In this document: piece after piece, positions 28,699 to 50,987 of the stretch
Layout: every line of letters starts with the position of its first letter
How positions within the stretch are numbered: position 1 is the first letter of the stretch
Assembly (NCBI GenBank): GCA_964519385.1
Contig: CAZFLR010000007.1
Coordinates: 16,045-80,044, forward strand
Source of the DNA: an uncultured Kineothrix sp.
Lineage (GTDB): Bacteria; Bacillota; Clostridia; Lachnospirales; Lachnospiraceae
Direction of reading: 5' to 3'
DNA length: 64,000 nucleotides
Notes under the pieces: model-generated
Database searches by the model: none
Told to the model about the DNA's origin: nothing
The model's input: only the letters and a program-made list of their open reading frames with translations
Made by a program: the position numbers and the translations under genes

Positions 28699-28713
28699 AT
28701 CATTTCCCCCTTA

Positions 28714-30366: not shown

Positions 30367-30381
30367 GTCATCACCTCATAA

Positions 30382-30900: not shown

Positions 30901-30969
30901 TGGTTTGTCCTCATTTCTTAATATCTCCCGGTTTTATTCGGGAAGCATGATTAATTACCATGCTCCCCC

Positions 30970-31248: not shown

Positions 31249-31280
31249 AAATACTCCTCCTTCCATGGTTTTATACTTAA

Positions 31281-31307
31281 TTTATCGGTATTTTCCCGGG
31301 GAACTTT
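31281..31307 (-). promoter_or_regulatory. Sigma-28/SigD-type promoter of the flgM operon
   Basis: Minus strand TAAA-N15-ACCGATAA (4/4 and 6/8, CCGATA core intact), between the tarJ stop codon and flgM. Confidence 0.7.
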
Positions 31308-31315
31308 AGGCTTTC

Positions 31316-33048: not shown

Positions 33049-33104
33049 AGGTACTCCTGTTGATTAAGCCCGCTCCCCGCTATGTCTTCGGGCAATAACG
33101 AAAA

Positions 33105-33767
33105 CTAAAATTTCAACTTATGTATGTCTGCCAGCACTTCCCCATAGGTCTTTTCTTTTCCAAACAATAGTGTTGTACCGAGAACGAAACCATTCACACC
33201 TTTTGGCGCATATTCCATGATTTTTTCTGCACTGCATGCGCCGTCCCAATAAATATCAAAATCCATTTCTTCCCGCAGCTCCAGCAACTGATCGATTTTC
33301 TTTCCGACATACGGAAGATACATCTGCCCGGCGTTTCCCGGATTCACTGACATAACAAGCACTCTTTTAACAATTGTGAGCATCATCATCACCGTCTCTA
33401 CACTGGTCCCCGGATTGATTGCAATCCCCGGAACCATGCCTGCATCAATAATCTTCTGCAATGTCGTAGAAGGATGATATTCCGCTTCCGGATGAATATA
33501 TACCGTGTCTCCCGGACGCAGTTTATTCAAAAACAAATGAATATTATTATTCGGATGCTCAATCATCAGATGTACATCAAGCGGCTTCTTCGTCGCGCCT
33601 GCAATAAATGCCATATCGTTCAGTGACATGGCAAAATTCGGGACATATCGTCCGTCCATAATATCTATATGAAACGAATCTATCCCACCTTTGTCCAACT
33701 CCTGTACTTCCTTTTCCAGATTACCGTAATTAGCACACATCATAGATGCTGTCAATTCAAAATTCAC
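33105..33767 (-). CDS. Ribulose-phosphate 3-epimerase family protein (Rpe/AlsE-like)
   Basis: SFHIDIMDGRYVPNF and VMSVNPGNAGQ motifs. The start is ambiguous: GTG at 33809, ATG at 33794, or GTG at 33767. I prefer 33767 because AGGGGGAA lies 5 nt upstream. Confidence 0.75.
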   Translation of the reverse strand: MNFELTASMMCANYGNLEKEVQELDKGGIDSFHIDIMDGRYVPNFAMSLNDMAFIAGATKKPLDVHLMIEHPNNNIHLFLNKLRPGDTVYIHPEAEYHPSTTLQKIIDAGMVPGIAINPGTSVETVMMMLTIVKRVLVMSVNPGNAGQMYLPYVGKKIDQLLELREEMDFDIYWDGACSAEKIMEYAPKGVNGFVLGTTLLFGKEKTYGEVLADIHKLKF

Positions 33768-33863
33768 ACAATTCCCCCTATTCTCTTTTGCCATATCGCC
33801 TACCGGCACTTTTCCATCTCCGACTCAAACGCAGCCATATCCATTCCAACTTCTTTCGCTGCT

Positions 33864-34124
33864 TCACTCACTTTCTTTTACTCTTTCTGTGTATGAATTC
33901 CTATACCTTTCATCTTTTGTAAACACGGACAGAGAATCCAGCACCGCCTCTATGTGGCGTACTCTTGCCGCCTGATTCGTCCTCAAGGTATCTACACCAA
34001 GCCTTCTATCTTTAAAAAAACGAGCAACAAACTTAAAATCACTTGTAAACTGCTCTATTATATTATCGCTCAAAAAGGCGATATCGTAAACCCGTATTTT
34101 ATAATCTTCCACATACTTTTTCAT
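33864..34124 (-). pseudogene. Possible C-terminal remnant of an Rpn/PD-(D/E)XK-type putative transposase (low confidence)
   Basis: An isolated 86-aa ORF (YKIRVYDIAFLSDNIIEQFTSDFKFVARFF) in an AT-rich gap with no N-terminal nuclease part. The family call comes from memory of similar C-termini only. Confidence 0.25.
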
Positions 34125-34214
34125 TTAAACCCTTTTATATTTCATTGTAAATTGGAAAATAAATGATGTTAAATAATGATTGAAATAGAATTGTAATTTG
34201 AAATTAAATATGAT

Positions 34215-34244
34215 TTTCGCATCCGCACAATCGCGGATGCGAAA
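34215..34244 (-). terminator. Strong hairpin downstream of the LRR surface-protein gene
   Basis: TTTCGCATCCGC-acaatc-GCGGATGCGAAA: a 12-bp perfect stem whose A/T ends could serve as U-tracts in either direction. Confidence 0.55.
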
Positions 34245-34323
34245 TAGTTATGTCTATGATTATAACTTAATTTCATATAGTGTCAAGTGACTATTGTCAG
34301 GAATCTGTAATGAAAGGCCCCTC

Positions 34324-37300: not shown

Positions 37301-37803
37301 AGATTACCTCCGACTGCTTTCAAACTACCAGTTCCTTTAAGAACCAGCATTCCGATTTCCTCTCCGGTTCCGTTTTTTTGCAAAGCCGCTGCGTAAGGAG
37401 AAGCTTTCAGAACATTATCTCCCTCCAGCGTAATCGTTACATTCCCCGCACTTCCATCCGCAATCTCAACCGCGGCCAAATACTCCGTACTCTGCCCCGA
37501 CAAGTCAATCGACACATCGGAAAGGGTAAGATTCACCGACACTCCGTCCGCTACTAAAATCTGATGCTCCGTCGTAGTTCCCGTAACCTTCACATTCTGA
37601 TTTTCCGTATAGGAATAGGTTTCCTCCCCGTACTGAATCGTATCTCTGCCAATTATAACGCTGCCCTGCGCAATATTCATTGCTGTTCCTTCATAAGAAA
37701 CCGCCCCCTGTGTTTCCGTCGCATTGCTGCTGACAGGAAAATTCCCCACGACTAACATCGCGCACAAAAGCACAGACAACATCCTCTTCATACAAGTTTT
37801 CAT
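34324..37803 (-). CDS. Large secreted surface protein: Ig-like/MBG-type repeats, a Cys-rich segment, and C-terminal BspA-type leucine-rich repeats
   Basis: 1159 aa. Signal peptide MKRMLSVLLCAMLVVGNFPVSSNA. Two internal repeats of about 85 aa (..DIELTYGDTDGAVV..GKITILKAGSASVKI.. and ..NLEFTYGDVNKQIE..GAITILAAGSATVKI..). C-terminal LRR (VTSIANNAFANNKKLTSVVIGKNVGKIGKKAFFNCKSLKTV). No LPXTG motif seen. Confidence 0.8.
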   Translation of the reverse strand: MKTCMKRMLSVLLCAMLVVGNFPVSSNATETQGAVSYEGTAMNIAQGSVIIGRDTIQYGEETYSYTENQNVKVTGTTTEHQILVADGVSVNLTLSDVSIDLSGQSTEYLAAVEIADGSAGNVTITLEGDNVLKASPYAAALQKNGTGEEIGMLVLKGTGSLKAVGGNLAAGIGADDVSSTENIKIKDGVITALPTEYADGIGVSRAMPGYTISRLVIDGGSLKTGLHESTVAVNSDGEGVMPLMIATDGESEVLINGKAYPKKHGTEKEIYAYLSIEDVNHVKVGEEEKDYFFYGILGQFVNHAKAPVAEAAVYGETLADVQLSTVSGGRWVWEDDTLSVGTVGTKAFTAQFVPDNTYTYYADPVTVSVTVLPKPITISGARVLPKEYDGTGNAEVTSVTFDDAQDTFTMGKDYTATAEFSDANAGVDKDVTVKVNLLNENYSLQTNTYIAKATIDKKLYYDIEASDIELTYGDTDGAVVASAVSGGKFSYAVTEGTDVISVDETTGKITILKAGSASVKIVLAGTANYMSKDKTISVNVNKKKIVPPRVNQENVFVYKGVPQTYVLAGTDDYQVTNVTKTAVGTYDAIVTLTDPDNTEWSGQLPVYIYSITKAPVTITADDKYVKDMEQRPEYTYKISGLVNGETIDFVPIISCATDMTIGTYPIEITGPAESDNYTFTYKNGTLTVAEKYSQSITAENLEFTYGDVNKQIEAQTNGDGTLSYEILEGEDVISVNKASGAITILAAGSATVKISATETENYSSAHKTIVIRVNKAENAPDMPKAELHVSCGTEYVGDVSLPTGWQWPVAARDDVLVAGSGVMDTAEYIGDDAGNYQNESIQIRIYRAAHTEGELLFDAADDVMPTCEEGGRGHVDCDICHKTIKKQVSAGALGHEYKALFVWSADGKGCVAQLICKRDSSHTAETSCEVTGKIKVPATCKSMGITTYTAVYGNDKSLKDVADIPKLTSHTWDGGVVTRKATTTAAGVKTYTCKICGEKKTEEIAILPLPKKGTTFKSPDGKAFYRVTKQGSEVEFKTPADKKAKKIVIPATIKVDGVTYKVTSIANNAFANNKKLTSVVIGKNVGKIGKKAFFNCKSLKTVTVNTTKLTAKNVGAGAWKGAGGKNYSKLTIKVPKKKLAAYKKLFKNKGLSSKAKVKK

Positions 37804-37872
37804 GTCCGAATCCTCTCATCTCATTCATAAATATAGTAGTTATTCTTGTAACGCAGAAATCAACCGACAACT

Positions 37873-39945
37873 TTATTCCATCACGTCTCTGATATCCGTC
37901 ATGCGATTAAAAAAGGGGTCTTCCACTGTCAGAGCCAAAAAATCCCTGTCTTTAATCTCCACATTTGTAATCAGTGCCAGCAAGGTCTCATCGAGTTTCT
38001 TGTTTACCCCTCTCGCCTTTCCCGGAAGAATAGATATGTATGTTTTAAAATAATCCAGAATTCCTTCCTGTGCCCTTCCGAAACAACGAATATCTTTCTC
38101 ACTTCTGGTCTCCTCCGCATAAACAGCCTCTCCTTCAGGCGTAAACTCCGATATCGACGGATGTGGTGCCGTCAGTATTGTCTCTAATATGTAGTAATGT
38201 TCAAAAATTGCACTCTCATTCTTTTCCGTTTCCCCATAAAACGGTTCTATATCGATACCTTTATCCCTCATAAACTCAGGTTCCGGCTGCAGGAAATATA
38301 ATCCCTTCAAAGGATTGTCCAAAAGCTTTTGCAGGTATAACTGCGTCGTTCCCTTCGCTACGAAATCAAAAATTGCAACCTCGCCTTGCGGATATCCCAG
38401 TTTCTCAATATACTTCCTGTAATTTTTCTTCTGTCGCGATGCCTTTTCCAATATCGCATCCCTATATTGCATCAAACCGCTTTCCTCATCCGGCGCACCA
38501 TCCCCGCACGGCTCTAGTCCGAACCGCACTTTCAGACATTCCTGTGATGTCCCGGAAAATTTCATACTGTTCACATACAGAATATCCTCTTCTGTCTCCA
38601 TACCGGCACGAATCGCCGCCGTTCGCGAGGTTAGAAAATAACGGACTCTTTTCCCCTCCGGCTCCAGTGCATCATACATTTTTTTTATTACATAACCGTC
38701 GCGGGCACAAAGCCAGATATCCCCGATTCCTCTTTTGGTCGTAATTTCATCCATCCATAATACAAAATCGGTAATCATCGCTCCACAGAGTAAATATCCG
38801 ATATCATATGTGTCCTCTATCTCAAGACTTCTGTTTTCCGTTTCAAAACAAAACGGATTATTCATCATTCGGGAGACAAACATGCCTATCTTTGTTCTGT
38901 CCGCCAACGTATTGGTCATATCCTCAGTTCCGAGACTTCCCAGTGCCTCAAACAATTCCATTCCGCTATGCAACCGGAATGTCTGAATTCTGCATTTTTC
39001 TGCCGGGAGAATATCTGCCGAGATATCATCGCCAATATGCAGATACACATCTGCTTTCACACGTTCCTTATACCGCTGAAACAGTTCCTGCGTTTTTCCC
39101 GTCTTTTCTTCGCTTGAAACAAGCAGACTGCTATAACCGGAAATTCCGCACAATTCCAAAAGCGTTTCAATCTGTTCCCGACTATAATAAGTATCAGTGA
39201 TAATATAAACCGGTTTGCCGAGCCTGACAATTCTCTTCAGGATTTCGACCGTTTCCCGTCGCGGAAGAACTACCTGCTGTTCTATCTCCCACTCTGTTTC
39301 TGCTGCCTTTTCCGGAGAAACATCCACATTGCCGTCCAACATCTGTATTGCTCGTTCATATATTTGTTCCAGTGTCGGTGCTTCTGTCTTGGACAATTCC
39401 TTTTCTGCTGCCAGCCTTGCATTCTCCAGCTCTCCCGGATGAAATCCTTTCTCCTCAAGGGAAAGCTTAACCAGCTCAAAAATATCCGTATACGAATATA
39501 AGCATCTGGTAACCAGCGTATCAAACAAATCAAAGCTCACCACGTCCGCACTGTGTATTTTTTCCAAAAGCTGTTTCTTCGTCGATGCTTCAAAGTCACG
39601 GAAATTATAAATTATGCGATTAGAAATAAGCAAATCTTTTCCCCTGACATCAAACAAAGCAATTCCTTGCTCGGTACACATTTCTCCGATACGCCTTTTA
39701 ATCGCTTTACAGGATCCCGGACGCGCCACTACAATAATCAGCTTCACCCGCGCTTTTACCGCATCATCAAAAGACACTATCTTCTTTCCGTACAACATTC
39801 CCGAATCCGTGAACCCATCCAGCAGACCAAAGATGTCAAATTCGTTATCCAAAGCTGCAATGACTTTTTCCGTCTCGGTTCCCAGACCGTACAGGGCAAT
39901 TCTTTCCTTCCTGTATGCACTTAATACTTCCAGTAGTTTTTCCAT
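37873..39945 (-). CDS. Multidomain protein: N-terminal small Rossmann-like module, COG5610-type HAD-superfamily hydrolase domain, and an uncharacterised C-terminal half
   Basis: 690 aa. RIALYGLGTETEKVI at the N-terminus. VVSFDLFDTLVTR (HAD motif I variant) and HIGDDISADI (motif IV-like). Confidence 0.65.
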   Translation of the reverse strand: MEKLLEVLSAYRKERIALYGLGTETEKVIAALDNEFDIFGLLDGFTDSGMLYGKKIVSFDDAVKARVKLIIVVARPGSCKAIKRRIGEMCTEQGIALFDVRGKDLLISNRIIYNFRDFEASTKKQLLEKIHSADVVSFDLFDTLVTRCLYSYTDIFELVKLSLEEKGFHPGELENARLAAEKELSKTEAPTLEQIYERAIQMLDGNVDVSPEKAAETEWEIEQQVVLPRRETVEILKRIVRLGKPVYIITDTYYSREQIETLLELCGISGYSSLLVSSEEKTGKTQELFQRYKERVKADVYLHIGDDISADILPAEKCRIQTFRLHSGMELFEALGSLGTEDMTNTLADRTKIGMFVSRMMNNPFCFETENRSLEIEDTYDIGYLLCGAMITDFVLWMDEITTKRGIGDIWLCARDGYVIKKMYDALEPEGKRVRYFLTSRTAAIRAGMETEEDILYVNSMKFSGTSQECLKVRFGLEPCGDGAPDEESGLMQYRDAILEKASRQKKNYRKYIEKLGYPQGEVAIFDFVAKGTTQLYLQKLLDNPLKGLYFLQPEPEFMRDKGIDIEPFYGETEKNESAIFEHYYILETILTAPHPSISEFTPEGEAVYAEETRSEKDIRCFGRAQEGILDYFKTYISILPGKARGVNKKLDETLLALITNVEIKDRDFLALTVEDPFFNRMTDIRDVME

Positions 39946-39959
39946 AGTCTCCCCTTCCG

Positions 39960-40973
39960 TTATTTTTCAAACGAAGACTTTTGAGGAAAACGCTTTTCTA
40001 AAGCCGCATTAATGGCAGCCTTCATCTTTTCAAATTCCTCAGGTGTACAATTCTCATTAAAGCTTATCATCTGATAATTCGCACTTTCTATCGCATCTAC
40101 GACTTCCTGATATGTGTCAATATTCGGAAAAAACACCTTTCCCTGCGTTCTGCGCGGATAAAAATCGCCTTCACAAAGCTGCCAGTAGCGCACAAGATAC
40201 TGGGTCACATCCGTATGTCCGCGAAAACGGTTTTGAGAGCCTGCGTCCAGTGCTTCCGGCTCGAGCTCCCAAAGCTTTTTCAACGTGGATTTCTTAAACG
40301 CATTCGCCATATGCGGGTCATAAAAACCCGGAAAATCATACCAGTATTCTAACGACCTCGTCCGCTCCAGCCGGTCGCCGTACTCCTCACAGAACCACTG
40401 CTCCGGATGCTCTGCCTGCACTTTTCTCTTTTTAAAATACTTATTGATGATAAACATGTGATTCACCTGAGCATAACGGGTTGCATGAGAAACCGCGCCA
40501 AACGAAGTAGTCGTAATGATATTTTCTACTGCTTCATCACATACCTTATCATTTTTAAAGTAGTAAGTCTCCTCTATCGTTTGCAGCGGAAAAAGGTCAT
40601 CATTAAACAAAATGTAATTCTCAGACAACGATTCTATCCTGTGCAAATTCATTTCTATTGTTCCGGCATTAAAAGTCGGCAAATATTTTTCCGGTATGTA
40701 GTCAGAATGCTTTACACACACAAGTTTCGGATGTTCCTTTACCAAAAAATCCGGCAGATGTCCGCACGTAATCAGATAAATCCTGTGTACCCACGGCATA
40801 TATTTTTCTATCGCCCGAAACCAGTAATGCAGATTGTCCCAGCTTTGAAAACGGACATTGGATGACTCAAATGCCTCATATCCTCCCTCAAGTGCATACT
40901 TCCTTCTCTCTTCATTCCAAACGGGATCCTTTTCATTCACCCATGGTATCACGATATCAATCGGCTGATTCAT
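39960..40973 (-). CDS. Stealth-family hexose-1-phosphate transferase (capsule phosphotransferase-like)
   Basis: IDIVIPWVNEKDPVW (CR1), LHYWFRAIEKYMPWVHRIYLITCGHLPDFL (CR2), ILFNDDLFP (CR3). Start at the ATG preceded by AGAGGGAA. Confidence 0.8.
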   Translation of the reverse strand: MNQPIDIVIPWVNEKDPVWNEERRKYALEGGYEAFESSNVRFQSWDNLHYWFRAIEKYMPWVHRIYLITCGHLPDFLVKEHPKLVCVKHSDYIPEKYLPTFNAGTIEMNLHRIESLSENYILFNDDLFPLQTIEETYYFKNDKVCDEAVENIITTTSFGAVSHATRYAQVNHMFIINKYFKKRKVQAEHPEQWFCEEYGDRLERTRSLEYWYDFPGFYDPHMANAFKKSTLKKLWELEPEALDAGSQNRFRGHTDVTQYLVRYWQLCEGDFYPRRTQGKVFFPNIDTYQEVVDAIESANYQMISFNENCTPEEFEKMKAAINAALEKRFPQKSSFEK

Positions 40974-41002
40974 AAACAATTCCCTCTTTTCTTTCTCCGG
41001 TG

Positions 41003-42172
41003 CTAATATATGTGTCTAAATTCCTTCCGGATAATTTTCTCTTCCTCTATTCCTTTTTCCACAAGACCTTTTTTAATGCTGTCTGCCAGCATCCTATTTC
41101 CGACAGCTATCAAAATCACATCTGCATCTGTCTTTGTCAGTGTTTCCGGCGATTGCACCTCAAATCCCTGCCGCCTGTATATATCATAATCCCGGTCCAC
41201 CCACCCGGCAATATTATAATGAAAACAGGAAAGCTGACGATGTATATCCTGTCCGCATTTTCCGGCCCCGTAGATAACAATTTTCTTATCTCTCAGTTCT
41301 CCACAGTCAGTCTGGAACTCCGGAAGATATACGATTTCATTATCAAACCCCATATACTCATTCAACGCGTTGCACGTAAGCTGCGCAATCCATCGCTGAA
41401 GCTGGGCAGTCAGCACATTTTTTAAATAGTGTTCCGAAAATATACTTTCTAATTCCAGATATAATTTATTAATATCAATCAACATTTCTTTATTAGTTGA
41501 ATGAACTGCTGAATCTTCCCTATACCGATAATAATAAAGCGGCTCGTGCACGATTTTGACTGATTTACATTTCAATATGTACTCATACAAAAACAATGCA
41601 TCCTCTGCATACCGGATATCGCACTCTAATCCGTGCACCAGCTTCTCCACCAGACTTCGCCGAAATAATTTCCCCGGCAGACCCGAAATCAGTCGATGTA
41701 TCTTAAAACTTTCCAAATCATATATCATGGTACCGACTAACTGCTCATAATCATCTCCCTCATATATGTTTTCCTCATAAGCATTGCTGTATACTGTCTC
41801 CTTTATATTTGCATACTGCCTATACATATCAAAGCAGAGCAATTCGGTTTTACCTATGTTTCCAACCATCTGTTCAATCATATCACATGTCACATAATCA
41901 TCACTATCAACGAAGCTTATAAATTCGCCGGATGCCTGTTCGATCCCCGCCTTTCTGGCCGAAACTACTCCGCCGTTCTCTTTTGCCACAACATGGACAC
42001 GCACATCTCTTTTCTCATAATCCCTAAGCACGGAAAGCGAGTCATCCGTTGAACCGTCATCTACACAGATGACTTCTATATCCCGAAACGTCTGGGCAAG
42101 TACGCTGTCTATACACTCTTTCAAATAACATTCTGTGTTATACACCGGTATAACAATTGAAACAAGCGGCAT
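41003..42172 (-). CDS. GT2-family glycosyltransferase with a C-terminal small Rossmann-like module
   Basis: VSIVIPVYNTECYL, VDDGSTDDS, FVDSDDY. The C-terminus has KKIVIYGAGKCGQDI. Start at the ATG preceded by GGGGGGAG. Confidence 0.8.
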   Translation of the reverse strand: MPLVSIVIPVYNTECYLKECIDSVLAQTFRDIEVICVDDGSTDDSLSVLRDYEKRDVRVHVVAKENGGVVSARKAGIEQASGEFISFVDSDDYVTCDMIEQMVGNIGKTELLCFDMYRQYANIKETVYSNAYEENIYEGDDYEQLVGTMIYDLESFKIHRLISGLPGKLFRRSLVEKLVHGLECDIRYAEDALFLYEYILKCKSVKIVHEPLYYYRYREDSAVHSTNKEMLIDINKLYLELESIFSEHYLKNVLTAQLQRWIAQLTCNALNEYMGFDNEIVYLPEFQTDCGELRDKKIVIYGAGKCGQDIHRQLSCFHYNIAGWVDRDYDIYRRQGFEVQSPETLTKTDADVILIAVGNRMLADSIKKGLVEKGIEEEKIIRKEFRHIY

Positions 42173-42184
42173 TTTCACTCCCCC

Positions 42185-42658
42185 CTATTCTTCAGTAAAT
42201 ATATCAAAGCTAAAAATCGCACTTGTCACCGAGACCAAATCCTCCTGTCTGACTCCCTGATTCATAAAATCTTCAAACACGGCATTTTCGTGAAACAAGC
42301 TGCAAATCATTATCTTTTCTATCTCGCCGGATTGATATCGCCTCAAAACCTCATTTGGCGACACCACTTCTGTCTGACATACCCCCTGCGGAAAGCGGGT
42401 GAAATTCCTGTCACCGATACACCTTACCTCCACCGGAGAATCGGACCCGTGCAAATCGCGCAGTATATATTCCGTAAATTCCGTGACCGCATACAAGGCA
42501 ATTTTTTCTGTCTGTATTTGTTCAAAAAAAACACCTATATTCCAGCCACGCAATTTATTTTCCAGATAGCGCATGACTACCGGGCACTGATAACGATATC
42601 TCTCATTGCGCTCAGCCGAATTATATTTTGTTACGATTTTTTTTACCTTAGGAAACAT
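42185..42658 (-). CDS. Stand-alone copy of the small Rossmann-like module (function unknown)
   Basis: 157 aa. EKIALYAVTEFTEYILRDL ... EKIMICSLFHENAVFEDFMNQGV is collinear with the modules fused to three neighbouring enzymes. Tightly packed in the operon, with 2-6 nt gaps. Confidence 0.6.
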   Translation of the reverse strand: MFPKVKKIVTKYNSAERNERYRYQCPVVMRYLENKLRGWNIGVFFEQIQTEKIALYAVTEFTEYILRDLHGSDSPVEVRCIGDRNFTRFPQGVCQTEVVSPNEVLRRYQSGEIEKIMICSLFHENAVFEDFMNQGVRQEDLVSVTSAIFSFDIFTEE

Positions 42659-42660
42659 AG

Positions 42661-43734
42661 CTATCTCCCTTCTTTTACGTCCAGCATCTCCTTTAAAAAC
42701 TCAACGGACTTTTCTCTTTCACGCTGTATCTTCGCGCTGATATCGGAAAAATCCATAGACCCTGAAACCTGTGTGACATCCATATATGTATCCACTATCC
42801 TGTTTCCGATTTCCATTTTTTCCGTCAGCATGTCAAATCTGCTTCTCATAGAATCCACAACAAACAAATAAAACGGCGTTTTAAACTGCACGGAAAACAG
42901 CGTGGCATGATAAGAATTCGTCACTACCATCCGGGCATTTTGAATATACCACAGAAAATTTTCTACCCCTTCATACATCATGCAGCCGTCATCTTTGCTG
43001 AACATATATGGCGGAGCACCCGGAATAGAATGCACCACCGCAAGGTTATATTTTCTGGAGAGCATATTTACAAACTCTACCCCTTTCATAAGCTCATGGT
43101 CATGTTCCAGCCAGAAAAAGAACAGAAAAGGCTTATCCCTCAGCGTCTCTTTTGCAATGATATCTTTATATTCCTCCGGTTCCAGAAGCAAAGTCGGATC
43201 CACAACCGTTCTGCATTCCATTCCGCTCGCTGCAGTCATAAAGGAAAGCTGATCTTTTTCCCTTAGGGAAATCCCCTTGAACTTAGACGCATACTTCACA
43301 AATATATCCTCATACGCCTTAGCTCTCTCAGCCGACATACCAACACTGACGGCATAGGAAAATCGCGGTGAGGAATCAGCCAGATATGCGAATAAATAAT
43401 TCTCATTCACCGTCGCAAATTCAAAATTCCACACCTGATCGCTTCCGACGCAGTAATAATCATAAGAAGCATCCGTCACTTCATGAATCATAGGCTGATT
43501 CAATCCGCATTTTTCCCGCAAAAAACTTTCAAAATGCGCTCTCTTTTCCATCATATGTACATAGGATTCCTCTGTGTTGGCAGGTGTCGCATACGCATAC
43601 CCTTCCGGTACATAATTAATAAGCTCCGCCTGATATCCTTCCAGCGAATTTATACGTCTGCGCAGCGCATATGCCTGTAAAACCGCCCCATAATTATTGG
43701 CATATTGGAATGTTAAAATACCGACTTTTTTCAT
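42661..43734 (-). CDS. Polysaccharide pyruvyl transferase family protein
   Basis: 357 aa. KVGILTFQYANNYGAVLQAYAL and TNSYHATLFS are typical of the family. Confidence 0.8.
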   Translation of the reverse strand: MKKVGILTFQYANNYGAVLQAYALRRRINSLEGYQAELINYVPEGYAYATPANTEESYVHMMEKRAHFESFLREKCGLNQPMIHEVTDASYDYYCVGSDQVWNFEFATVNENYLFAYLADSSPRFSYAVSVGMSAERAKAYEDIFVKYASKFKGISLREKDQLSFMTAASGMECRTVVDPTLLLEPEEYKDIIAKETLRDKPFLFFFWLEHDHELMKGVEFVNMLSRKYNLAVVHSIPGAPPYMFSKDDGCMMYEGVENFLWYIQNARMVVTNSYHATLFSVQFKTPFYLFVVDSMRSRFDMLTEKMEIGNRIVDTYMDVTQVSGSMDFSDISAKIQREREKSVEFLKEMLDVKEGR

Positions 43735-43746
43735 ATTGCTCCTCTT

Positions 43747-45849
43747 CTACACCTCTACAGAATATATTGTGGCATTCGGATATTTTTTTCGTATGTCCTT
43801 TTTTACCTCAGCCATAAATTGTCCGGCCGCAACCACCCATATACAATCCGTTCTCTCCTCAGGATTTTGCGCCACGAACTCATCAAATGTGCAAATACCC
43901 TGCTTCTTTACATGATTGTCAATAATACACTCTATCTGCTTCTCATATTTGCGGGCAAACATCCGTCCCAGTATACCATAGCCATATAATATAATCTTTG
44001 ATGACTGAAATACATCCTCATGTGTGGATGCCTTTTGTCTCTTCCAGTTAACCTCATCCCTTATGCATGCTCCATTCGCTTTTCCTGCCACAATTGCATG
44101 CTCCGGCATATTTTTATTTACCACCGTCTGCGCCGTAATCAGACTGTCCTGCCCGATTCGCACACCCTTTAACACTGTCACGTTCGAGGTCAGCCATACA
44201 TGATTTTCGATGACAACTTCCTTCGCCGGATTTACCGAAGCTCCGCAGTCGTTCTGCAGTTGATGAAAATCGCTGTCATAAATCATAATATTTCTACCCA
44301 GCATCACATCTTCACCCAGAACCACTTTTTTTGCAACAATAATGACACTTCCGCCGTTTGCCGTAAAAAATCCGGTATCCAACAAAGCATTTTCCTTAAC
44401 CTCGACTACCGTATTATAAAACAACGCGCCTCCGTGATGCATATTCCATAAAGCCTTATCATTCATTCTGACATGTGTTTCAGATTTTGAGCCTCTCAAT
44501 TTATTAATTCCGATTTCAAAATCTTTGTCTCCATGTACATAAATTCTCGCCGTCTTATCAAGATCCAGTATCGCATTTTTATACGGAATCAGCTTCGCAG
44601 TTCCTAAGCGCACCACATTCTTTGAACAGTAATTGTAAAAAAGATACTTTAAAACAGATATTTCTCCATGATTTTTATATTTCTTTTTATCTTTTTTCAA
44701 TTCTCTGCAGATATATAATGGTCCGTGTTTTTTCTTTGTACTTTTCTCTTCACCTATACATTGCCGTACAGCTTCGCTGAATGTTTTTTCTTTTATCAGC
44801 TCTGCAAACTTTTCTGTCTTCCCGGAGTTTGCCGGATTCTGTAATAATGCTTTATTTCCCGGCAAAACATCCTCTATCATCTTTTCCCTGATATACAGGC
44901 TTCCTTTTGCTCTTTCAAATAACCGCTTCCCTTTTTCCGTATTCAGCATCAGAACCGAAATCCCCTGAAACATATCATACTCGGACTCTCCGGCTATCCC
45001 CCAAAAATCACCGATTGTGATATCTGAAACCTTTCTCGGCAATGTTCTGTACCGGCATTCAAAACAGGATTCTCTCGTGTATAAATCATTTCCCACAAAT
45101 CCTTTTACCCACAAATCCTCATTTTTATCCTTATGGTATTCTGCTCCGTTTTCAAAACAAACCCGGGTCGCAAGACTCCGCCATCCGGTTTTCTTGTTTT
45201 TAAGGTGCACCATAGTTGCCTTCGCCCCATATTCCTTCTCAAGGTCGGAAATGTATTCTCTGAATGCGAGCGGTGAATTGATACTCCTGCAAATAAAGTC
45301 CATATAATATATTTCTGCTTTGGTATCGCCCAGATACATGGACATTGCTGCATTCTGGCACGGAGTTCCGCAGAACAAAACCTCTTTGCCCTTTTTCAGT
45401 TCTTCTTTTACCGCCTTATAAATTCCTTCCGTATCGCTTTGGAAATATTTTGAGCCACACAGACATTCCAATTCTTCCATTGTACGTGCCAGAAAATGAT
45501 TGGCACTTTTATAGTTCTCGCCATAACGACAACCGGCTACTGCACCTCCGTTTTCTATAATCTTTCTTGCAAGCTCATAGAAAACGCCTCCAGAGGTACT
45601 CTGATTTCTAAGGGTAGAATCCTTACTCCAGGCTGCCCAGACCACCGGCTCATTCCCCTCCGGCACTTGTTCCGCTTGAAGCGAAGGGCATTTTTTCTCA
45701 CACAAACCACAATCCGTACACTTCTCTTTATCAATGTGAGGATACCAAAATCCTTTCTCGTCTGTCTCAAACGTAATCGCACCGTGCGGGCAGACATCTG
45801 CGCACATCTTGCACCCGGTACATTGACCTTTTGTCATATCACCTATCAT
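43747..45849 (-). CDS. Tri-domain fusion: 2x[4Fe-4S] ferredoxin plus FrhB-like (coenzyme F420 hydrogenase/dehydrogenase beta-like) domain, a left-handed beta-helix acyltransferase, and a small Rossmann-like module
   Basis: 700 aa. CTGCKMCADVCP and CTDCGLCEKKCP; SGGVFYE and LFCGTPCQ (FrhB-like). Hexapeptide region VVLGEDVMLGRNIMIYDSDFH..VVIENHVWLTSNVTVLKGVRIGQDSLITAQTVV. C-terminus KIILYGYGILGRMF. Confidence 0.75.
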   Translation of the reverse strand: MIGDMTKGQCTGCKMCADVCPHGAITFETDEKGFWYPHIDKEKCTDCGLCEKKCPSLQAEQVPEGNEPVVWAAWSKDSTLRNQSTSGGVFYELARKIIENGGAVAGCRYGENYKSANHFLARTMEELECLCGSKYFQSDTEGIYKAVKEELKKGKEVLFCGTPCQNAAMSMYLGDTKAEIYYMDFICRSINSPLAFREYISDLEKEYGAKATMVHLKNKKTGWRSLATRVCFENGAEYHKDKNEDLWVKGFVGNDLYTRESCFECRYRTLPRKVSDITIGDFWGIAGESEYDMFQGISVLMLNTEKGKRLFERAKGSLYIREKMIEDVLPGNKALLQNPANSGKTEKFAELIKEKTFSEAVRQCIGEEKSTKKKHGPLYICRELKKDKKKYKNHGEISVLKYLFYNYCSKNVVRLGTAKLIPYKNAILDLDKTARIYVHGDKDFEIGINKLRGSKSETHVRMNDKALWNMHHGGALFYNTVVEVKENALLDTGFFTANGGSVIIVAKKVVLGEDVMLGRNIMIYDSDFHQLQNDCGASVNPAKEVVIENHVWLTSNVTVLKGVRIGQDSLITAQTVVNKNMPEHAIVAGKANGACIRDEVNWKRQKASTHEDVFQSSKIILYGYGILGRMFARKYEKQIECIIDNHVKKQGICTFDEFVAQNPEERTDCIWVVAAGQFMAEVKKDIRKKYPNATIYSVEV

Positions 45850-48332
45850 TCTGTCACCCCTTTAATCTCATCCCATACAGTCTTACCGACATTTATCTCC
45901 CCTCGCGTCTCTTCCTCTGAAAATCCCGGGTCTAATACCTTACAAAAACGACGCAGGTCAAACAGATTACTTTCTACGCCTCTGTGCTCCCTAAGCTCAG
46001 CCCGGATATTCTTCTCATATCGATTCAAATAAAGCTCCAGTTCCTTCTCTTCCGGCTGATTATCGTATATTCGTTCCGCACCCGATTCGTCTCTGATAAG
46101 AACCTTTCCGTCGGTCATCTGGCATATCCTTCTCTTATTCTCCAATACCCTGTAACAGGTATACTGTTCGTCCAAAATCTGCATCTCTTTTTCTGAATCT
46201 TTTGAGAGTATCATCGTTTTGGACTTATATGTACCCGGAAATACAATCTCTCTTCCTGTGTCCACAACTCCCAAAAAGAGTCCGCCCGGAGCTGTTGCTC
46301 CCTTGGGCAAATCAATCTCCAGCACTTCTTTTTTTCCGTCCCAGCGCACAATAGAGGTATTATCTCTCGGAGAAAGCCAAAAATATCTGCCGTCCCATGT
46401 CATTCCCGAATAACAGTTCTTCGCCTTTCCGATTTCAATCCACTCAAAATTTCCTGTCTTCAAATCAAATTTTAAAACATGATTTCCCATACAGGATGCC
46501 AAATATACTATTTGACCGCATCGTGCATAATCATTTCTGAAAAAAGCATTCTGATTTTTCGCCTCGGAATCCGGTATGTTTTCAAATATCTCATCATAAT
46601 AAGTGACATTGCCATTCTCTAAATCAACCTTCAGAATAGAAGGGTAACAGGTTCCGATTAAATACAGCTTCTCTTCGTAAAAAAGAGTTTGGAAAAATTT
46701 TAATTGCACATTCTTGTCTTGTACATGAATTTCTTTCCACTGCTTCGTATCACAATTGAATATAAGTATCTTCTTTGCGGCAAGAGGTGTAAAAACAAGG
46801 AAATTCTTCCATATATCAATTTTGGAAGCCAGTCGGTCCTCCATGATTTTTTCATCCGGTATGTTTCCCAGTATCTTTGTCTTACCGCTTTCCGTATCCA
46901 GTTCACAAATCATATTGATATCGCGTGCCACGAAAATCAATTTACCGTCTTTTTCACAAAAGTCTTCAAATATCACGGCATTTTCTTCCGCACATCTGAA
47001 GCTCTGCAACAGCATTGGTTTTCCTGCCTCTTCGCAGAGCTTTACCACGCTGCTTCCGTCCCCATAATATCCGTCACAAACTGCTATCGCCCTGTCCAGT
47101 TCCGGCGAATCATCATAAATCCCGAATCTGCGGGCTTTATACTCTTCCACCAGCTTACTGTATTTTTCCCACAGGTCCGGTTTCATAGACTCAATCGTTG
47201 CCTTCATCAGCGGGTGCGGTCGCCATAAAAGCACTACTTCCTCACTGTTTTCGGCAAAAAAAGTAAAAACGGATTTCATTTTTTCAATCATATCTTCACT
47301 ATGCTGTAAAAAAGCACTCACGCTTGTATTGTAAAAAACAACCTTTTTCCTTTTTTCACCCGGTCGCTCTATCAGCTCAAGCCACTCTTTAGGCAATCTG
47401 ATGTTCTCTTTTTTTATATTGCGCACCTTGTCCACTTTCGGTGAACCGGTGCCAAGAATTTTATTCTCCCAATACTTCCGCGTCTTTTCTCCTGCCCACT
47501 GCGTCATGACATCGACATAAATCTGTCGCATTGCCTCCGACTGTACCACTACTCTGTCCGCATGCAAAACTCCGGGCACCATTATAAAGTGTTCCATATA
47601 TTTTACACTCACCTTATCCTGCGGATTTATTTCATTCAGTACAAAGTAAGGAACATAGACCAGACAATCCGTGTATTCCTTTATCCGCTTAGAATAAAAT
47701 GCCGGATGGATGGTTGTCACATAGTTCGCCTCATCATAGGGATTATGGATAAAAATTACATCCGGACGTCTTTCTTCTAGGCGATATGCATCATAGTGTG
47801 TAATCGGAACATATTCGGGGAATAACTCTCCCTCATAATGCATTTCCTTTACCGAGCCGTCCGGCTTCTTATCAAAGTACGGTATCGGAACCACATATGC
47901 GTCGCACGACGGATCTGCATCCGCTGCAAGCCAGATGCTTTCAAGCGAATCCCACATAGAGGCCTTATACGGCAGAAAAAGAACTTCTTTTTTTTCTTTT
48001 ATATCTTCGCTGATACTATTTCGTATACGCTCTAAAATTACGGACAGAGTTTCCCGAACCTCAGCTCTGGAAATGAACTCCTTCTTTGTAAGCGATACAT
48101 GAATTTGATAAATAGCTTCACAATATTCTTCCAGCATTGCAACGGTGACAAACCCCTGACCTTCCGAATCCTCTATCACCGTCCCGATTATAATCGCGCT
48201 CTCCTGGCACTGCTGTAAAAGAAGCATTGCATCCTGTACTCTGCATTCCTCTATCACCCCTGCCAAAAGTTCATGCGCTTTTTCAATTGTTTCAACACTT
48301 TTTATAATCTGTTCTTTTTGCTGTTTTCTCAT
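45846..48332 (-). CDS. TagB/TagF-like CDP-alditol phosphotransferase domain fused to a C-terminal beta-propeller-like repeat region
   Basis: 828 aa. KKVVFYNTSVSAF, VLLWRPHPL and AVCDGYYGDGSSVV parallel the TagF-family blocks (ILYAPT.R, .HP., .D.liTDYSS). The last ~350 aa carry repeated beta-strand blades (..LIFVARD.., ..FLVFTPL.., ..LYLIGTC.., ..IVYLASC.., ..YFWLSPR..). Confidence 0.6.
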   Translation of the reverse strand: MRKQQKEQIIKSVETIEKAHELLAGVIEECRVQDAMLLLQQCQESAIIIGTVIEDSEGQGFVTVAMLEEYCEAIYQIHVSLTKKEFISRAEVRETLSVILERIRNSISEDIKEKKEVLFLPYKASMWDSLESIWLAADADPSCDAYVVPIPYFDKKPDGSVKEMHYEGELFPEYVPITHYDAYRLEERRPDVIFIHNPYDEANYVTTIHPAFYSKRIKEYTDCLVYVPYFVLNEINPQDKVSVKYMEHFIMVPGVLHADRVVVQSEAMRQIYVDVMTQWAGEKTRKYWENKILGTGSPKVDKVRNIKKENIRLPKEWLELIERPGEKRKKVVFYNTSVSAFLQHSEDMIEKMKSVFTFFAENSEEVVLLWRPHPLMKATIESMKPDLWEKYSKLVEEYKARRFGIYDDSPELDRAIAVCDGYYGDGSSVVKLCEEAGKPMLLQSFRCAEENAVIFEDFCEKDGKLIFVARDINMICELDTESGKTKILGNIPDEKIMEDRLASKIDIWKNFLVFTPLAAKKILIFNCDTKQWKEIHVQDKNVQLKFFQTLFYEEKLYLIGTCYPSILKVDLENGNVTYYDEIFENIPDSEAKNQNAFFRNDYARCGQIVYLASCMGNHVLKFDLKTGNFEWIEIGKAKNCYSGMTWDGRYFWLSPRDNTSIVRWDGKKEVLEIDLPKGATAPGGLFLGVVDTGREIVFPGTYKSKTMILSKDSEKEMQILDEQYTCYRVLENKRRICQMTDGKVLIRDESGAERIYDNQPEEKELELYLNRYEKNIRAELREHRGVESNLFDLRRFCKVLDPGFSEEETRGEINVGKTVWDEIKGVTE

Positions 48333-48344
48333 TTCATCCCACTT

Positions 48345-49214
48345 TTATAATCTTGAAAAATCACAGGTATCCGGATTATAACGCAGCCTTATATTTTCAT
48401 TCAGACTGCTGATCCGGGCTATTTCTTTTGGTGTCATTTCAAAATTTTCCACATCAAATATATCATCAAAATGTTCCTTATTCAGCGTTCTTGGTATCGC
48501 TGTTCTTCCCAACTGATAATGCCATCTTAAAATAATCTGAACCGCTGATTTTTGATACTTTTGCGAAAGTTCGTAAATCGGTCTTGATTTAATCAGAACA
48601 TCATGCATTCTTCCGATTGGTGAGTATGCAATCGGCTGAATGTCATTTGCGTAGCAGTAATTTATCAGAGCCTCCTGCGTAAACAGCGGATGAATTTCAA
48701 ACTGGTTTACCGCCGGTACAACCGTTGCTTCCTGCATAAGCTCCTCTAGATGATGCTTATGAAAATTGCAGACTCCTATCGAGCGTATCAAACCTTCCTC
48801 GTACAATTTCTCCATCTCTTTGTAGGTTTGTACAAAAGTTCCGGTCTGCGGCCAGTGAATCAGATAAAAATCAACATAATCCACCCCCAGCGCGGAAAGC
48901 GTCTTTTCCAGTGCCAGTCTTACATTTCCTTCCCACTGCTGCTTATTGCTGATTTTAGACATTAATAAGATGTCCTTTCGCTCAATGCCCGAATCCTTCA
49001 CTGCCTTACCCAGCATCTCCTCATTATGACCGTATGCCCCTGAGGTATCAAACAATTTACATTTCCCCGACATCAGTGCATGGCAGTATATATGATATTG
49101 TCTGTCCATCAATTCCGCGACGGATGCATCTTCTTTTTTCCCCCATATTCCGGTAGCTCCAAGACCCAGTCTCGGCAGACATTTCCCATTGTTTAATATA
49201 ATCTGGTCTTTCAT
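48345..49214 (-). CDS. Aldo/keto reductase family oxidoreductase
   Basis: 289 aa. LFDTSGAYGHNEE, VDYVDFYLIHWP, IGVCNF, NQFEIHP. Confidence 0.85.
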   Translation of the reverse strand: MKDQIILNNGKCLPRLGLGATGIWGKKEDASVAELMDRQYHIYCHALMSGKCKLFDTSGAYGHNEEMLGKAVKDSGIERKDILLMSKISNKQQWEGNVRLALEKTLSALGVDYVDFYLIHWPQTGTFVQTYKEMEKLYEEGLIRSIGVCNFHKHHLEELMQEATVVPAVNQFEIHPLFTQEALINYCYANDIQPIAYSPIGRMHDVLIKSRPIYELSQKYQKSAVQIILRWHYQLGRTAIPRTLNKEHFDDIFDVENFEMTPKEIARISSLNENIRLRYNPDTCDFSRL

Positions 49215-49239: not shown

Positions 49240-49271
49240 AAAAGGAACTACGCCCAAACGGGCGCAGTTCC
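49240..49271 (-). terminator. Rho-independent terminator after the 338-aa secreted-protein gene
   Basis: Minus strand GGAACTGCGCCC-gttt-GGGCGTAGTTCC (12 bp, one A.C mismatch) followed by TTTTC. Only about 25 nt separate it from the AKR start codon, so partial read-through would feed the downstream operon. Confidence 0.7.
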
Positions 49272-49299: not shown

Positions 49300-50316
49300 T
49301 TAATTTGCAATTGTTAATGTAAATGTAGCAGTTGTATTTACTTTATCAGCAAAAGTTACCTTTACTGTTCTTGTCTGTCCGACTGCAAGATCCTTTACAG
49401 ATGCTGTTGCAGGAATCTTTACAGAAGAACCGCTTAAAGTATAATCAGATGTTGCCCATGCATAGGCTTTTCCGCTCACGATTGTTGCAATGGATTTAAT
49501 TCCTGTTGCTCCGAGGTCACCACCGCCAAGATCAACCGGGATTGTAGCACCGCTTGCTTTAGAGAATGTAACTGCTGTAGTTCCAAGAGAAGGAGCTGCA
49601 TTATCTTTGTGCTCTTTGATTTCCCATGTAACTTCTACTGATGGTGCAACGCTCTCTAATTCAGACCAGTCACCTGCTGAATTGCAGGCACCTGTAAGAT
49701 TGAAAGAGTAGTCTTCAAAATCCATGTCATTTGCAGAAACTGATAATTCATATTTATATCCATCCTGCTCTGACCATGAGTATTCATAAGCACCTTCAGG
49801 AGCTTTTGCAATTTTTGATTTCAGTGAAGCACCATCGGCTGTGATAGCTACTTCGTTATCGCCGTCAACGAGTGCAAGATATACGCTTGCATTTTTGTCA
49901 TCTGCGAATGTCTTGTCATCTGTCAATGTAATGCCATCTGCACCTGTAATAGTAGCTGAAACAGCAACATCTACATCAAATGTACTCTTATTTACAACTG
50001 TGAGGTCATCACTCTTTGAGCTGTATGTAGCATTGCCTGAAACTCCGTTTGCAAAGAATAATGTTGCGCCGTCTTCAAAATCAGCACCGTTGTATTTAGC
50101 TGCATCTGTGTTAGCGATAAGCTCTTCCGGGTCGAGGATAAAGTCAAGGTTTGCTACCTGTGCTGCCTCTGTAGGAAGAATTACAGAATATACATCTGTA
50201 TCTACTGTTCCTTCTAACTCACCTTCACCTGTGATTCCTGCCAAAGCCATCACTGATGTGCTGAGTGTTAATACTGTTGCCAATGTAATTGCTATATACT
50301 TTTTGAAATTATTCAT
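49300..50316 (-). CDS. Secreted Thr/Ala/Asp-rich protein of unknown function
   Basis: 338 aa. Signal peptide MNNFKKYIAITLATVLTLSTSVMALA. SD context AAATTCAAGGAGGAA is identical to that of flagellin copy 2. Codon choices (GTA, ACA, GCA, TCT, AGA) resemble the flagellin genes more than the neighbouring enzyme genes. Confidence 0.8.
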   Translation of the reverse strand: MNNFKKYIAITLATVLTLSTSVMALAGITGEGELEGTVDTDVYSVILPTEAAQVANLDFILDPEELIANTDAAKYNGADFEDGATLFFANGVSGNATYSSKSDDLTVVNKSTFDVDVAVSATITGADGITLTDDKTFADDKNASVYLALVDGDNEVAITADGASLKSKIAKAPEGAYEYSWSEQDGYKYELSVSANDMDFEDYSFNLTGACNSAGDWSELESVAPSVEVTWEIKEHKDNAAPSLGTTAVTFSKASGATIPVDLGGGDLGATGIKSIATIVSGKAYAWATSDYTLSGSSVKIPATASVKDLAVGQTRTVKVTFADKVNTTATFTLTIAN

Positions 50317-50344
50317 CGATTATTCCTCCTTGAATTTTTTTCGA

Positions 50345-50881
50345 CTAATTATTAATCACAATTGTGATGCCAACTCTTACCGTACTAATGCTTTTCCCTT
50401 CATCATCCAGAAGATGGTATGTAACCACCGCGTCATATGTTCCTGCATCAAGATTCTTGTCAAGAACAATATTTTCAAGGTGAGAACCCACCGGAAGAAT
50501 TGGCGATTCGTAAAGAATCTCCTCCGTATCGGATTTGGTGACATCAAAGTAAACGGAATTGGTGTTCGTTTCAATGTTCTCAACATAAGCATTTGAGGAT
50601 GCGGATTTACCGTCCTCAAATTTCCACGTAGGATTCATCGTTACCTGATAAGAACCGGACGGAACCTTCTGCTGCTCTGAAAGCTGTGCAACGAGCTCGT
50701 CCACATTTTCTTCTGTTACGACAACATTTCTCTTCTCTTTTCCGTCTTCTTTCCCCATTAACAAGAAGATAACGACTCCAAGCAAAATAAGAATCAAGAG
50801 AATACACACTACGAGAACTATTTTTCCTCCTTTCCCTTTTTTCACATCCTTCACTTTTTCATTTTCTGTTTCCTTTGACAT
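50345..50881 (-). CDS. Single-pass membrane-anchored protein of unknown function
   Basis: 178 aa. A charged N-terminus, then KIVLVVCILLILILLGVVIFLLM, then a beta-rich ectodomain of about 130 aa. Confidence 0.75.
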   Translation of the reverse strand: MSKETENEKVKDVKKGKGGKIVLVVCILLILILLGVVIFLLMGKEDGKEKRNVVVTEENVDELVAQLSEQQKVPSGSYQVTMNPTWKFEDGKSASSNAYVENIETNTNSVYFDVTKSDTEEILYESPILPVGSHLENIVLDKNLDAGTYDAVVTYHLLDDEGKSISTVRVGITIVINN

Positions 50882-50960
50882 TCATTGTCCCTCCTCAACA
50901 GTCAATATATTTAATTTGCTCCAGTGCAAAATAAATACCATCCGTCACTATTATACTATA

Positions 50961-50987
50961 ATATCGGCATTTATTCCAATAACTTAA
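50961..50987 (-). promoter_or_regulatory. Sigma-28/SigD-type promoter (perfect -10) upstream of the two unknown envelope-protein genes
   Basis: Minus strand TTAAG-N15-CCGATAT with the full 8-mer GCCGATAT, the same geometry as the flagellin promoters, about 80 nt upstream of the ATG at 50881. An overlapping SigA-like reading (TTGGAA-N18-TATAAT) is also possible. Confidence 0.6.

Follow-up and report, generated by a model that had tools for sequence, protein, structure and literature searches.

Envelope genes controlled by the motility sigma factor sigma-28 (SigD/FliA) are already known as a class. lytABC and other SigD-regulon genes of Bacillus subtilis, including its autolysin operons, are non-flagellar members, and in Clostridioides difficile the SigD-dependent envelope-related genes include cbpA, CD0514, and the fliC-linked glycosylation genes (PMC3865298). 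The unit described here consists of two genes, gene A and gene B, in a 64-kb stretch of DNA (the window) from an uncultured Kineothrix sp. of the Lachnospiraceae (contig CAZFLR010000007.1), in which both genes, the late flagellar cluster, and the sugar island between them are on the minus strand. Similar to lytABC, cbpA, and CD0514, the A-B unit has a promoter of the TAAA-N15-GCCGATAW type and extracytoplasmic products, and it would be co-expressed with the late flagellar genes. In contrast, the known SigD envelope genes belong to protein families unrelated to those of A and B, which are unnamed, and the strict A-B pairing conserved in Lachnospiraceae and other Clostridia sets the unit apart. 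Moreover, we know of no SigD envelope gene for which a flagellin ribosome-site motif and flagellin-like codon bias have been described, and gene B has both.

The FliW-CsrA system acts on B. subtilis hag and C. difficile fliC, and to our knowledge hag is essentially the only CsrA target in B. subtilis. Gene B resembles these targets in having a GGA motif that overlaps its Shine-Dalgarno (SD) sequence; it reads UCAAGGAGGAA, and the predicted SD-overlapping site (BS2) of C. difficile fliC is CTAAGGAGGG (PMC8523840). Both fliW and csrA are encoded in the window, in the same cluster. In contrast to the known targets, B is a non-flagellin and a Sec substrate, and no second upstream hairpin site was found at B.

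Spirochaete FlaA is a Sec-exported, all-beta, abundant protein made alongside the flagellin core proteins. However, B was rejected as a FlaA family member, as it has no Pfam match (E<0.1), no PDB sequence match, and no FlaA among its top 50 fold matches. Spirochaete filaments are periplasmic whereas those considered here are extracellular, and we know of no sigma-28-driven spirochaete flaA. The TapA-TasA, anchored S-layer, and WxL/WxLIP systems resemble A-B in that a conserved low-bias membrane protein is followed by a highly biased secreted beta-sandwich protein, and they share with B the presence of multiple paralogues and a variable exposed domain. The fold of B also has a weak resemblance to Sap S-layer domains 4-5 and to WxLIP. 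On the other hand, A-B has no SLH, CWB2, WxL, or Peptidase_M73 module and no dedicated signal peptidase or sortase, and those systems are expressed from biofilm or constitutive promoters whereas A-B has a promoter of the motility sigma factor type. Literature searches on Lachnospiraceae flagellin glycosylation, SigD surface proteins, Firmicute flagellar sheath proteins, and C2185 gave no description of the A-B pair. New here are two families without annotation that are strictly paired, a flagellin ribosome-site motif shared almost exclusively with B, and the placement at the edge of glycosylation islands in abundant gut commensals.

The reading that is tentatively favored, with slightly less than even confidence, is that A-B is a late-flagellar-class operon making an abundant extracytoplasmic structural protein B together with a membrane partner A. 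The elements of the unit are as follows.

50345..50881, minus strand: gene A, 178 amino acids (aa), membrane-anchored
49300..50316, minus strand: gene B, 338 aa, Sec signal peptide, flagellin-like codon usage
50961..50987, minus strand: sigma-28 (SigD/FliA)-type promoter, with -35 TTAA at 50987..50984, a 15-nt spacer, and -10 GCCGATAT at 50968..50961
50950..50979, minus strand: SigA-like promoter TTGGAA-N18-TATAAT, overlapping the sigma-28 site
50882..50960, minus strand: gene A leader of ~79 nt, with a small hairpin TTTGC...GCAAA and the SD GAGGAGGG at its 3' end
50323..50337, minus strand: gene B ribosome site AAATTCAAGGAGGAA, identical to the fla2 site, a candidate CsrA BS2-type site
49244..49271, minus strand: terminator-like hairpin 3' of gene B, with a 12-bp stem, 8 GC pairs, the tail TTTTCATT, and a short interrupted T tract

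The gap between the open reading frames (ORFs) of gene A and gene B is 28 nt. The imperfect terminator expected after the unit is the hairpin at 49271..49244, and its interrupted T tract probably allows partial read-through.

The comparison set for promoters, ribosome sites, and codons is the late flagellar cluster of the same window.

19434..31308, minus strand: late flagellar cluster
31308..31283, minus strand: flgM promoter, sigma-28 type
21466..21441, minus strand: fla2 promoter, sigma-28 type
20395..20370, minus strand: fla1 promoter, sigma-28 type
24761..24537, minus strand: csrA, adjoining fliW and overlapping the fliW end

The order in this cluster is flgM promoter, flgM, flgN, two copies of flgK, flgL, fliW, csrA, flaG, fliD, fliS, fla2, and fla1, and both flagellins (fla1, fla2) are 272 aa in length.

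On the minus strand, the DNA 5' of gene A reads gcaaaaaaggtcTTAAgttattggaataaatGCCGATATtatagTATAATagtg, and the end of the -10 element GCCGATAT lies 79 nt from the gene A ATG. The original prediction, made from the sequence of this window, had placed a sigma-28 -10 element with TTAA at 15 nt about 80 nt upstream of a two-gene unit, with a spacing identical to that of the flagellin promoters; the element was located there, and the same N15 is found at fla1 and fla2. The architecture fits the SigD consensus of B. subtilis and C. difficile, TAAA-N13-16-GCCGATAW (PMC3865298). GCCGATAW occurs 12 times in the window compared with 3.6 expected, and T(A/T)AA-N15-nCCGATA is found upstream of a gene at only four window sites, which belong to fla1, fla2, flgM, and gene A. 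The -10 elements of the comparison sites are nCCGATA(T/A), and AAAAAAGGTnTTAAGTTATT is common to the gene A and fla1 promoters. The SigA-like promoter that had also been pointed out is present at 50979..50950. The lytABC operon has dual SigD and SigA promoters, and A-B may be arranged likewise, with the SigA-like promoter possibly adding basal expression in the lineage of the window.

Relatives of A were collected from GTDB genomes and assemblies, which gave 50 non-redundant other loci from Lachnospiraceae and other Clostridia. In an alignment of their promoters, the two closest relatives (L052, L053) keep the sigma-28 elements and TATAAT, while the SigA-like -35 lacks conservation; at a greater distance, L038 and L033 retain the sigma-28 elements only. 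A relaxed motif, (C)TAA(A/T)-N14-17-(C/T)CGATA within 300 nt upstream of A, is present in 24 of the 50 other loci, compared with ~1.3 expected from the background of 0.026 per 300 nt in the same loci (~18-fold enrichment). The strict motif occurs 33 times in 1.55 Mb of strand, and 11 of these occurrences are upstream of A, that is, in ~1% of the sequence. A B paralogue in L015 has its own sigma-28-type motif. On this enrichment across loci and the retention of the sigma-28 elements in distant relatives, the sigma-28-type promoter is, as far as sequence conservation can tell, an ancestral and selected feature of the A-B operon in about half of its carriers.

The part of the gene A leader at 50890-50945 (minus strand), GGTATTTATTTTGCAC...GAGCAAATTAAATATA, is near-invariant among the three closest relatives (L052, L053), while the DNA 5' of the -35 diverges; the conserved leader with its TTTGC/GCAAA hairpin may be a stability or regulatory element. 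TnpB (Cas12f1-like_TNB) genes are located just upstream of A in L001/L002 (5995-7320) and L047 (8316-9635), where the sigma-28 motif is absent. L048, in which the motif is likewise absent, has a TnpB gene (1-212) ~9.8 kb upstream of A.

The ribosome site of gene B was predicted to share a 15-mer with the second flagellin copy, and in the window AAATTCAAGGAGGAA is indeed confined to two ribosome sites, those of fla2 and gene B (0.06 expected). Its 11-mer core TCAAGGAGGAA has exactly three copies in the 64 kb, which are the ribosome sites of fla1, fla2, and gene B. The motif CAAGGAGG was surveyed within 32 nt of the start codon of 636 ORFs of at least 120 aa from all loci and the window. It is present at the start of 36 of them, namely 27 B genes directly after A, 5 flagellins, and 4 others, and it was not found in this survey at late flagellar genes other than flagellins. 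Across loci, CAAGGAGG precedes B in 33 of 44. In L001, L006, and L007, ATGAGGAGG is found at B in place of CAAGGAGG.

The codon usage of gene B was compared with that of the two window flagellins, which served as the reference for the codon adaptation index (CAI), and 48 other genes were scored. Gene B has the highest CAI of the 48 non-flagellin genes (0.602; next 0.536), the lowest GC content at third codon positions (0.26), and, in a flagellin-versus-bulk log-likelihood ratio, is the sole non-flagellin gene scoring positive (z = +5.7). The shares of preferred and avoided codons are as follows.

ACA share of Thr codons: gene B 87%, flagellins 91%, bulk 33%
GCA + GCT share of Ala codons: gene B 94%, flagellins 91%, bulk 59%
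GGT share of Gly codons: gene B 46%, flagellins 78%, bulk 19%
CTG share of Leu codons: gene B 4%, flagellins 10%, bulk 32%

The flagellin-like codon bias that had been claimed for both proteins therefore stands for gene B, while gene A has no clear flagellin-like bias and the AGA usage named for gene B is that of a single Arg codon. Under the same model, in most of the other loci no neighbor scores above the B gene that directly follows A, which is usually first or second in rank, and additional nearby B paralogues have a weaker bias. As the bias recurs across loci, high expression of B, for which codon usage is a proxy, appears to be a conserved property.

B appears tied to flagellin by three independent expression layers, the promoter class, the ribosome-site motif, and the codon bias, all of which are conserved across genomes. 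The A-B unit would be a bicistronic, sigma-28/SigD-dependent operon of the late flagellar class. B would be its strongly expressed product, a Sec-exported beta-sandwich protein of two domains, whose synthesis would keep pace with that of flagellin owing to the promoter type, ribosome-site motif, and codon usage that the two have in common. The claim that the unit encodes an abundant structural surface protein co-expressed with the filament is upheld as far as these signals go, since they recur across loci, and from them we infer the abundance and the co-expression.

B may also be under the FliW-CsrA flagellin-export checkpoint through its candidate CsrA site. The sequence UUCAAGGAGGAA at B has a GGA in a CARGGA-like context that overlaps the SD and is identical to the flagellin sites, and the B leader contains the GGA motif UCAAGGAGG. 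The conserved C of CAAGGAGG is non-complementary to the anti-SD at the 3' end of Firmicute 16S rRNA, where A would be expected, and it fits the CsrA core CARGGA. A textbook hairpin site, CGUCAAGGAUGACG, is present in the fla2 leader (21340-21375, minus strand) 12 nt upstream of the SD as a candidate CsrA BS1, and GUCAGGGAUGGCA in the fla1 leader (20330-20350, minus strand) is another candidate BS1. When a second hairpin site was sought in the B leader, none was convincing, and only a distant GGAUGAUGAAGGGA was found within the gene A coding sequence (hairpin z -0.75). As B is without an upstream hairpin site, the alternative to CsrA control is that the shared motif is just an unusually strong ribosome site, reserved for the most abundant proteins. 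CsrA control of B can still be considered a well-motivated suggestion from these sequences.

Both encoded proteins are as had been described, a 178-aa membrane-anchored protein and a 338-aa Sec-secreted Thr/Ala/Asp-rich protein. B has a signal peptide at residues 1-26, ending ...VMALA|G, and the mature protein, of 32.4 kDa, has an isoelectric point of 4.05 and a high content of Ala, Thr, Asp, and Ser. Its AlphaFold model (pLDDT 86.9) is all-beta with two domains. The N-terminal segment 27-58 is very conserved and extended (TGxGxxEGxVxTDVFxVVLPT...FILDPEGLI) and mostly non-regular in the model. It is followed by an acidic beta-sandwich domain to about residue 235, and the C-terminal domain (~240-338) is basic, immunoglobulin (Ig)/CBM_X2-like, and hypervariable even among close relatives. 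In a full hidden Markov model search, the B family comprises about 1,840 clusters at 50% identity, 928 of them with E <=1e-30, mostly of 335-390 aa. In some homologues as many as eight stretches match the profile, and CBM_X2 is matched by the C-terminal repeats of these proteins.

Protein A consists of a Lys-rich cytoplasmic N-terminus, a transmembrane (TM) helix at 18-42, the conserved juxtamembrane stretch RNVVVxExNV, and an ectodomain at 80-176 that is modeled as an extracytoplasmic beta-sandwich (pLDDT >90, AlphaFold). Its identity across Lachnospiraceae is 55-60%, with 30 invariant positions in a 32-sequence sample, and the family has at least 379 clusters at 90% identity. Foldseek searches of the A model against PDB gave generic Ig/cadherin/CBM matches with a TM-score of at most 0.43 and weak matches to the AAF and Myf fimbrial subunits. 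In agreement with the original statement that neither family was recognized, neither A nor B has a significant match in Pfam (for B none at E<0.1), NCBIfam, PADLOC, or PHROGs, profiles of both families have no significant match among PDB sequences, and the fold searches gave generic matches only. No homology between A and B was found by profile-profile comparison.

Several assignments were considered and rejected. A is not FliL, as the NCBIfam and PDB matches do not extend beyond residues 1-72, which comprise the N-terminus and the TM helix, and score 32 bits compared with a cut-off of 187, and its all-beta sandwich ectodomain has no full-length match to the FliL periplasmic domain. B as a flagellin or flagellar type III substrate is opposed by the lack of a Flagellin_N, Flagellin_C, or rod/hook Pfam match and by its cleavable Sec-type signal peptide. 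Neither A nor B has an SLH, CWB2, or similar wall-anchoring module of a Firmicute S-layer protein. A TasA/camelysin or Caf1-type fibre is not indicated by a Peptidase_M73 or Caf1 match for the window B or by SipW or usher genes in the loci. A defence or phage origin of A and B is unsupported by PADLOC and PHROGs.

Beyond the window, B follows A in all loci with enough downstream sequence except L039, and the pairing extends past Lachnospiraceae to further Clostridia, Oscillospiraceae and Peptococcaceae among them. Of the 53 fetched loci, 14 have two or three B-family ORFs. In L004/L005, the order is flgK-flgK-flgL-fliW-csrA-flaG-fliD-fliS-flgN-flagellin-A-B-glycan genes, so that the pair directly follows flagellin, and flagellins are located within 10 kb of the pair in five loci besides these. 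The close relatives L033, L038, and L052 have the same upstream feoB, radical-SAM/SPASM, and membrane-protein genes as the window.

Two sugar-modifying gene sets flank the flagellar cluster.

31316..49214, minus strand: sugar island 3' of gene B, co-directional, ~18 kb, with soluble sugar and phospho-sugar enzymes
5927-19360: second glycan island, on the far side of the flagellins

The island 3' of gene B adjoins the late flagellar cluster and encodes an aldo-keto reductase, a TagF-like protein of 828 aa, pyruvyl- and acetyl-transferases, GT2, Stealth, HAD, a ribulose-5-phosphate epimerase, and IspD/TarI-like and ADH (alcohol dehydrogenase)/TarJ-like enzymes. No flippase, polymerase, or initiating transferase was found in this island, and none of its enzymes has a predicted membrane-spanning segment. 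The phospho-glycan operon that had been expected next to the unit is confirmed in its position; its link to A-B is positional only, and it has no export machinery. The reading of the 31-49 kb operon as a wall-polymer locus was rejected as default on the same grounds, as it has no membrane-spanning enzyme and no export genes. As the enzymes are soluble and export genes are lacking, the island looks like a cytoplasmic protein (flagellin-type) glycosylation island rather than a wall-polymer operon. Its sole exported product, with an N-terminal signal-like segment, is a secreted 1159-aa MBG/YDG/BspA-type leucine-rich repeat protein (34324-37803, minus strand).

The second island contains three GT2-TPR paralogues (10462-11523, 16037-17095, 17119-18177), GT2, GT11, DUF4422, Glyco_trans_1_2, a DUF3880 glycosyltransferase-like protein, UDP-galactopyranose mutase, and a CTP_transf_3 cytidylyltransferase. 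GT2-TPR is the type used in clostridial flagellin glycosylation, and this set looks like a canonical flagellin glycosylation island, so that the window would have two candidate islands. In most related loci, A-B abuts highly variable sets of soluble sugar-modifying genes (aminotransferases, methyltransferases, ATP-grasp, acetyl-/pyruvyl-transferases, TagF-like, cytidylyltransferases, and GT2 including GT2-TPR), with a similar pattern in L004, L016, and L047-L052, and no flippase, polymerase, or initiating-transferase domains are present among the annotated neighbors of A-B there. C2185-like_N (PF22674) proteins recur in the islands beside A-B (L004, L016, L048, L050, L051, L052) and have this domain joined to a methyltransferase, DUF1919, or GT2 module. 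In six loci, L016 (8060-9745), L009, L010, L018, L035, and L040, the immediate neighbor of A is a polytopic membrane protein of 561 aa of the Wzy_C (O-antigen-ligase-like) type, and in L016 a B paralogue whose tail is acidic and of low complexity precedes it. The presence of Wzy_C beside A hints at extracytoplasmic glycan transfer in some lineages.

If the favored reading of a late-flagellar-class operon holds, motile cells would carry an abundant structural layer, outside the cytoplasm, that is built from A and B. A would act as the membrane-anchored, Ig-like, membrane-proximal partner of B and would anchor it, nucleate it, or assist its assembly. Assembly or anchoring would be the task of the conserved N-terminal half of B, and the exposed part would be its hypervariable C-terminal Ig module, which has one to about eight copies in relatives. 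The wall or cell surface, the filament itself, and a separate fibre are all candidate placements of B, and B may be glycosylated. Several observations weigh against the favored reading. No recognisable sigma-28 motif is found in 26 of the 50 loci, flagellar genes lie within 10 kb in only 6 of the 50, and the SigA-like promoter that overlaps the sigma-28 site has a -10 that is conserved in the two closest relatives. The fold matches of B (Foldseek against PDB and BFVD) are to generic tandem Ig/cadherin/CBM domains only, with a TM-score of at most 0.3, and B is without a recognisable wall-binding module. A cannot anchor B one-to-one since it is not codon-biased, and B has the SD-overlapping GGA site only, without the upstream hairpin site of the fla2 leader. 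Some of these points would fit a surface protein of the ordinary housekeeping kind, or an adhesin, with the SigA-like promoter as its source of transcription, for which the sigma-28 and ribosome-site likeness would be signals of strong expression only, as TTGGAA-N18-TATAAT overlaps the sigma-28 site, half of the loci have no sigma-28 motif, most have no nearby flagellar genes, and AAGGAGG is a canonical strong SD. However, the ~18-fold enrichment upstream of A, the distant relatives that keep sigma-28 elements and lose SigA elements, the near-exclusive occurrence of CAAGGAGG at B and flagellins, and the motif of the L015 paralogue make this explanation very unlikely.

An unlikely but wider-reaching explanation is that Sec-exported B coats the filament, binding the (glycosylated) filament and giving the short flagellins an outer surface in trans as a functional analogue of FlaA, with A loading or retaining B near the flagellar base. 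A promoter type, ribosome-site motif, and codon bias in common with flagellin are what a near-stoichiometric partner would need, and the flagellins have only 272 aa, which we take to be too short for the outer D2/D3 domains. In addition, the pair directly follows flagellin in L004 and lies beside variable glycosylation-type islands, and the C-terminal domain of B varies among close relatives as the island content does. On the contrary, B matches neither FlaA nor any flagellar family, sheath proteins are absent from its top fold matches, and most loci are not adjacent to flagellins. The monoderm filament is moreover extracellular and tip-growing, so that a Sec-secreted coat must assemble from free solution, which is physically awkward. 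In its full form, in which the near-stoichiometric coat would be gated by sigma-28 and FliW-CsrA, B would be a second conserved CsrA target in Firmicutes, and the Ig module would shape how hosts and phages view the flagella, this proposal is likewise improbable. It is also doubtful that B and its paralogues are surface glycoproteins that accept the products of the neighboring glycan island, with the A-B and island cassette only co-regulated with motility. B itself may be glycosylated in the light of the second GT2-TPR island, whose three GT2-TPR genes could separately serve the flagellins, and of Wzy_C next to A in the six loci; A-B also abuts variable sugar-modification genes in most loci, and B is Thr-/Ser-rich. 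Yet the islands lack a flippase, initiating transferase, and polymerase, and cytoplasmic glycosylation is not usual for Sec substrates. Wzy_C is missing from the window and is present in no more than 6 of about 50 loci, and the GT2-TPR genes of L016 are in the same island as A-B. Most improbable, together with the housekeeping protein, is a non-flagellar surface fibre into which B, like TasA or Caf1, polymerises by strand complementation through its conserved N-terminal segment, with A as anchor or nucleator like TapA for TasA. The most conserved part of B is indeed the extended, mostly non-regular segment right after the signal peptide, and a conserved minor membrane protein lies upstream of a subunit that is abundant by codon proxy. 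One B homologue has a sub-threshold Caf1 match (E 3.5e-4, 21 bits compared with a cut-off of 25), and A has the weak AAF/Myf fimbrial fold matches. Nevertheless, the window B has no Peptidase_M73/TasA or significant Caf1 match, a SipW-type peptidase, an usher, and a sortase are all missing from the unit, a self-complemented N-terminal strand is not seen in the monomer model, and all fold matches are generic.

Other features of the window lie apart from the unit. The flagellar cluster has two FlgK paralogues (26815-28698, 28714-30366) and two FlgN-like genes. A sortase gene (3480-4292, minus strand) adjoins a second, divergent FliD_C-containing ORF (4536-5849, plus strand) that is distant from the main fliD. 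At 51039-52901 (minus strand), a radical-SAM/SPASM enzyme of 354 aa has as its partner a Cys-rich membrane protein of 255 aa with four TM segments, which matches no family. Both are shared with L033 and L038 at 87-97% identity, in synteny with feoB, and they could be a maturase-substrate or maturase-partner pair.

The two sizeable unannotated families are now defined with a clear genomic signature that can guide experiments. If the ribosome-site motif common to B and flagellin is a CsrA site, the FliW-CsrA checkpoint would govern more than flagellin in Firmicutes, and a second conserved CsrA target beside flagellin would be new. Lachnospiraceae flagella are dominant microbiota antigens, and the flagellins of strain A4 and its relatives are targeted by Crohn's-associated antibodies. 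Lachnospiraceae bacterium A4 carries the A-B pair (L012). If the favored reading of a late-flagellar-class operon is true, motile gut commensals would have in B a major constituent of their surface that has so far gone unrecognised, and B would be a candidate for an antigen, adhesin, or phage receptor.

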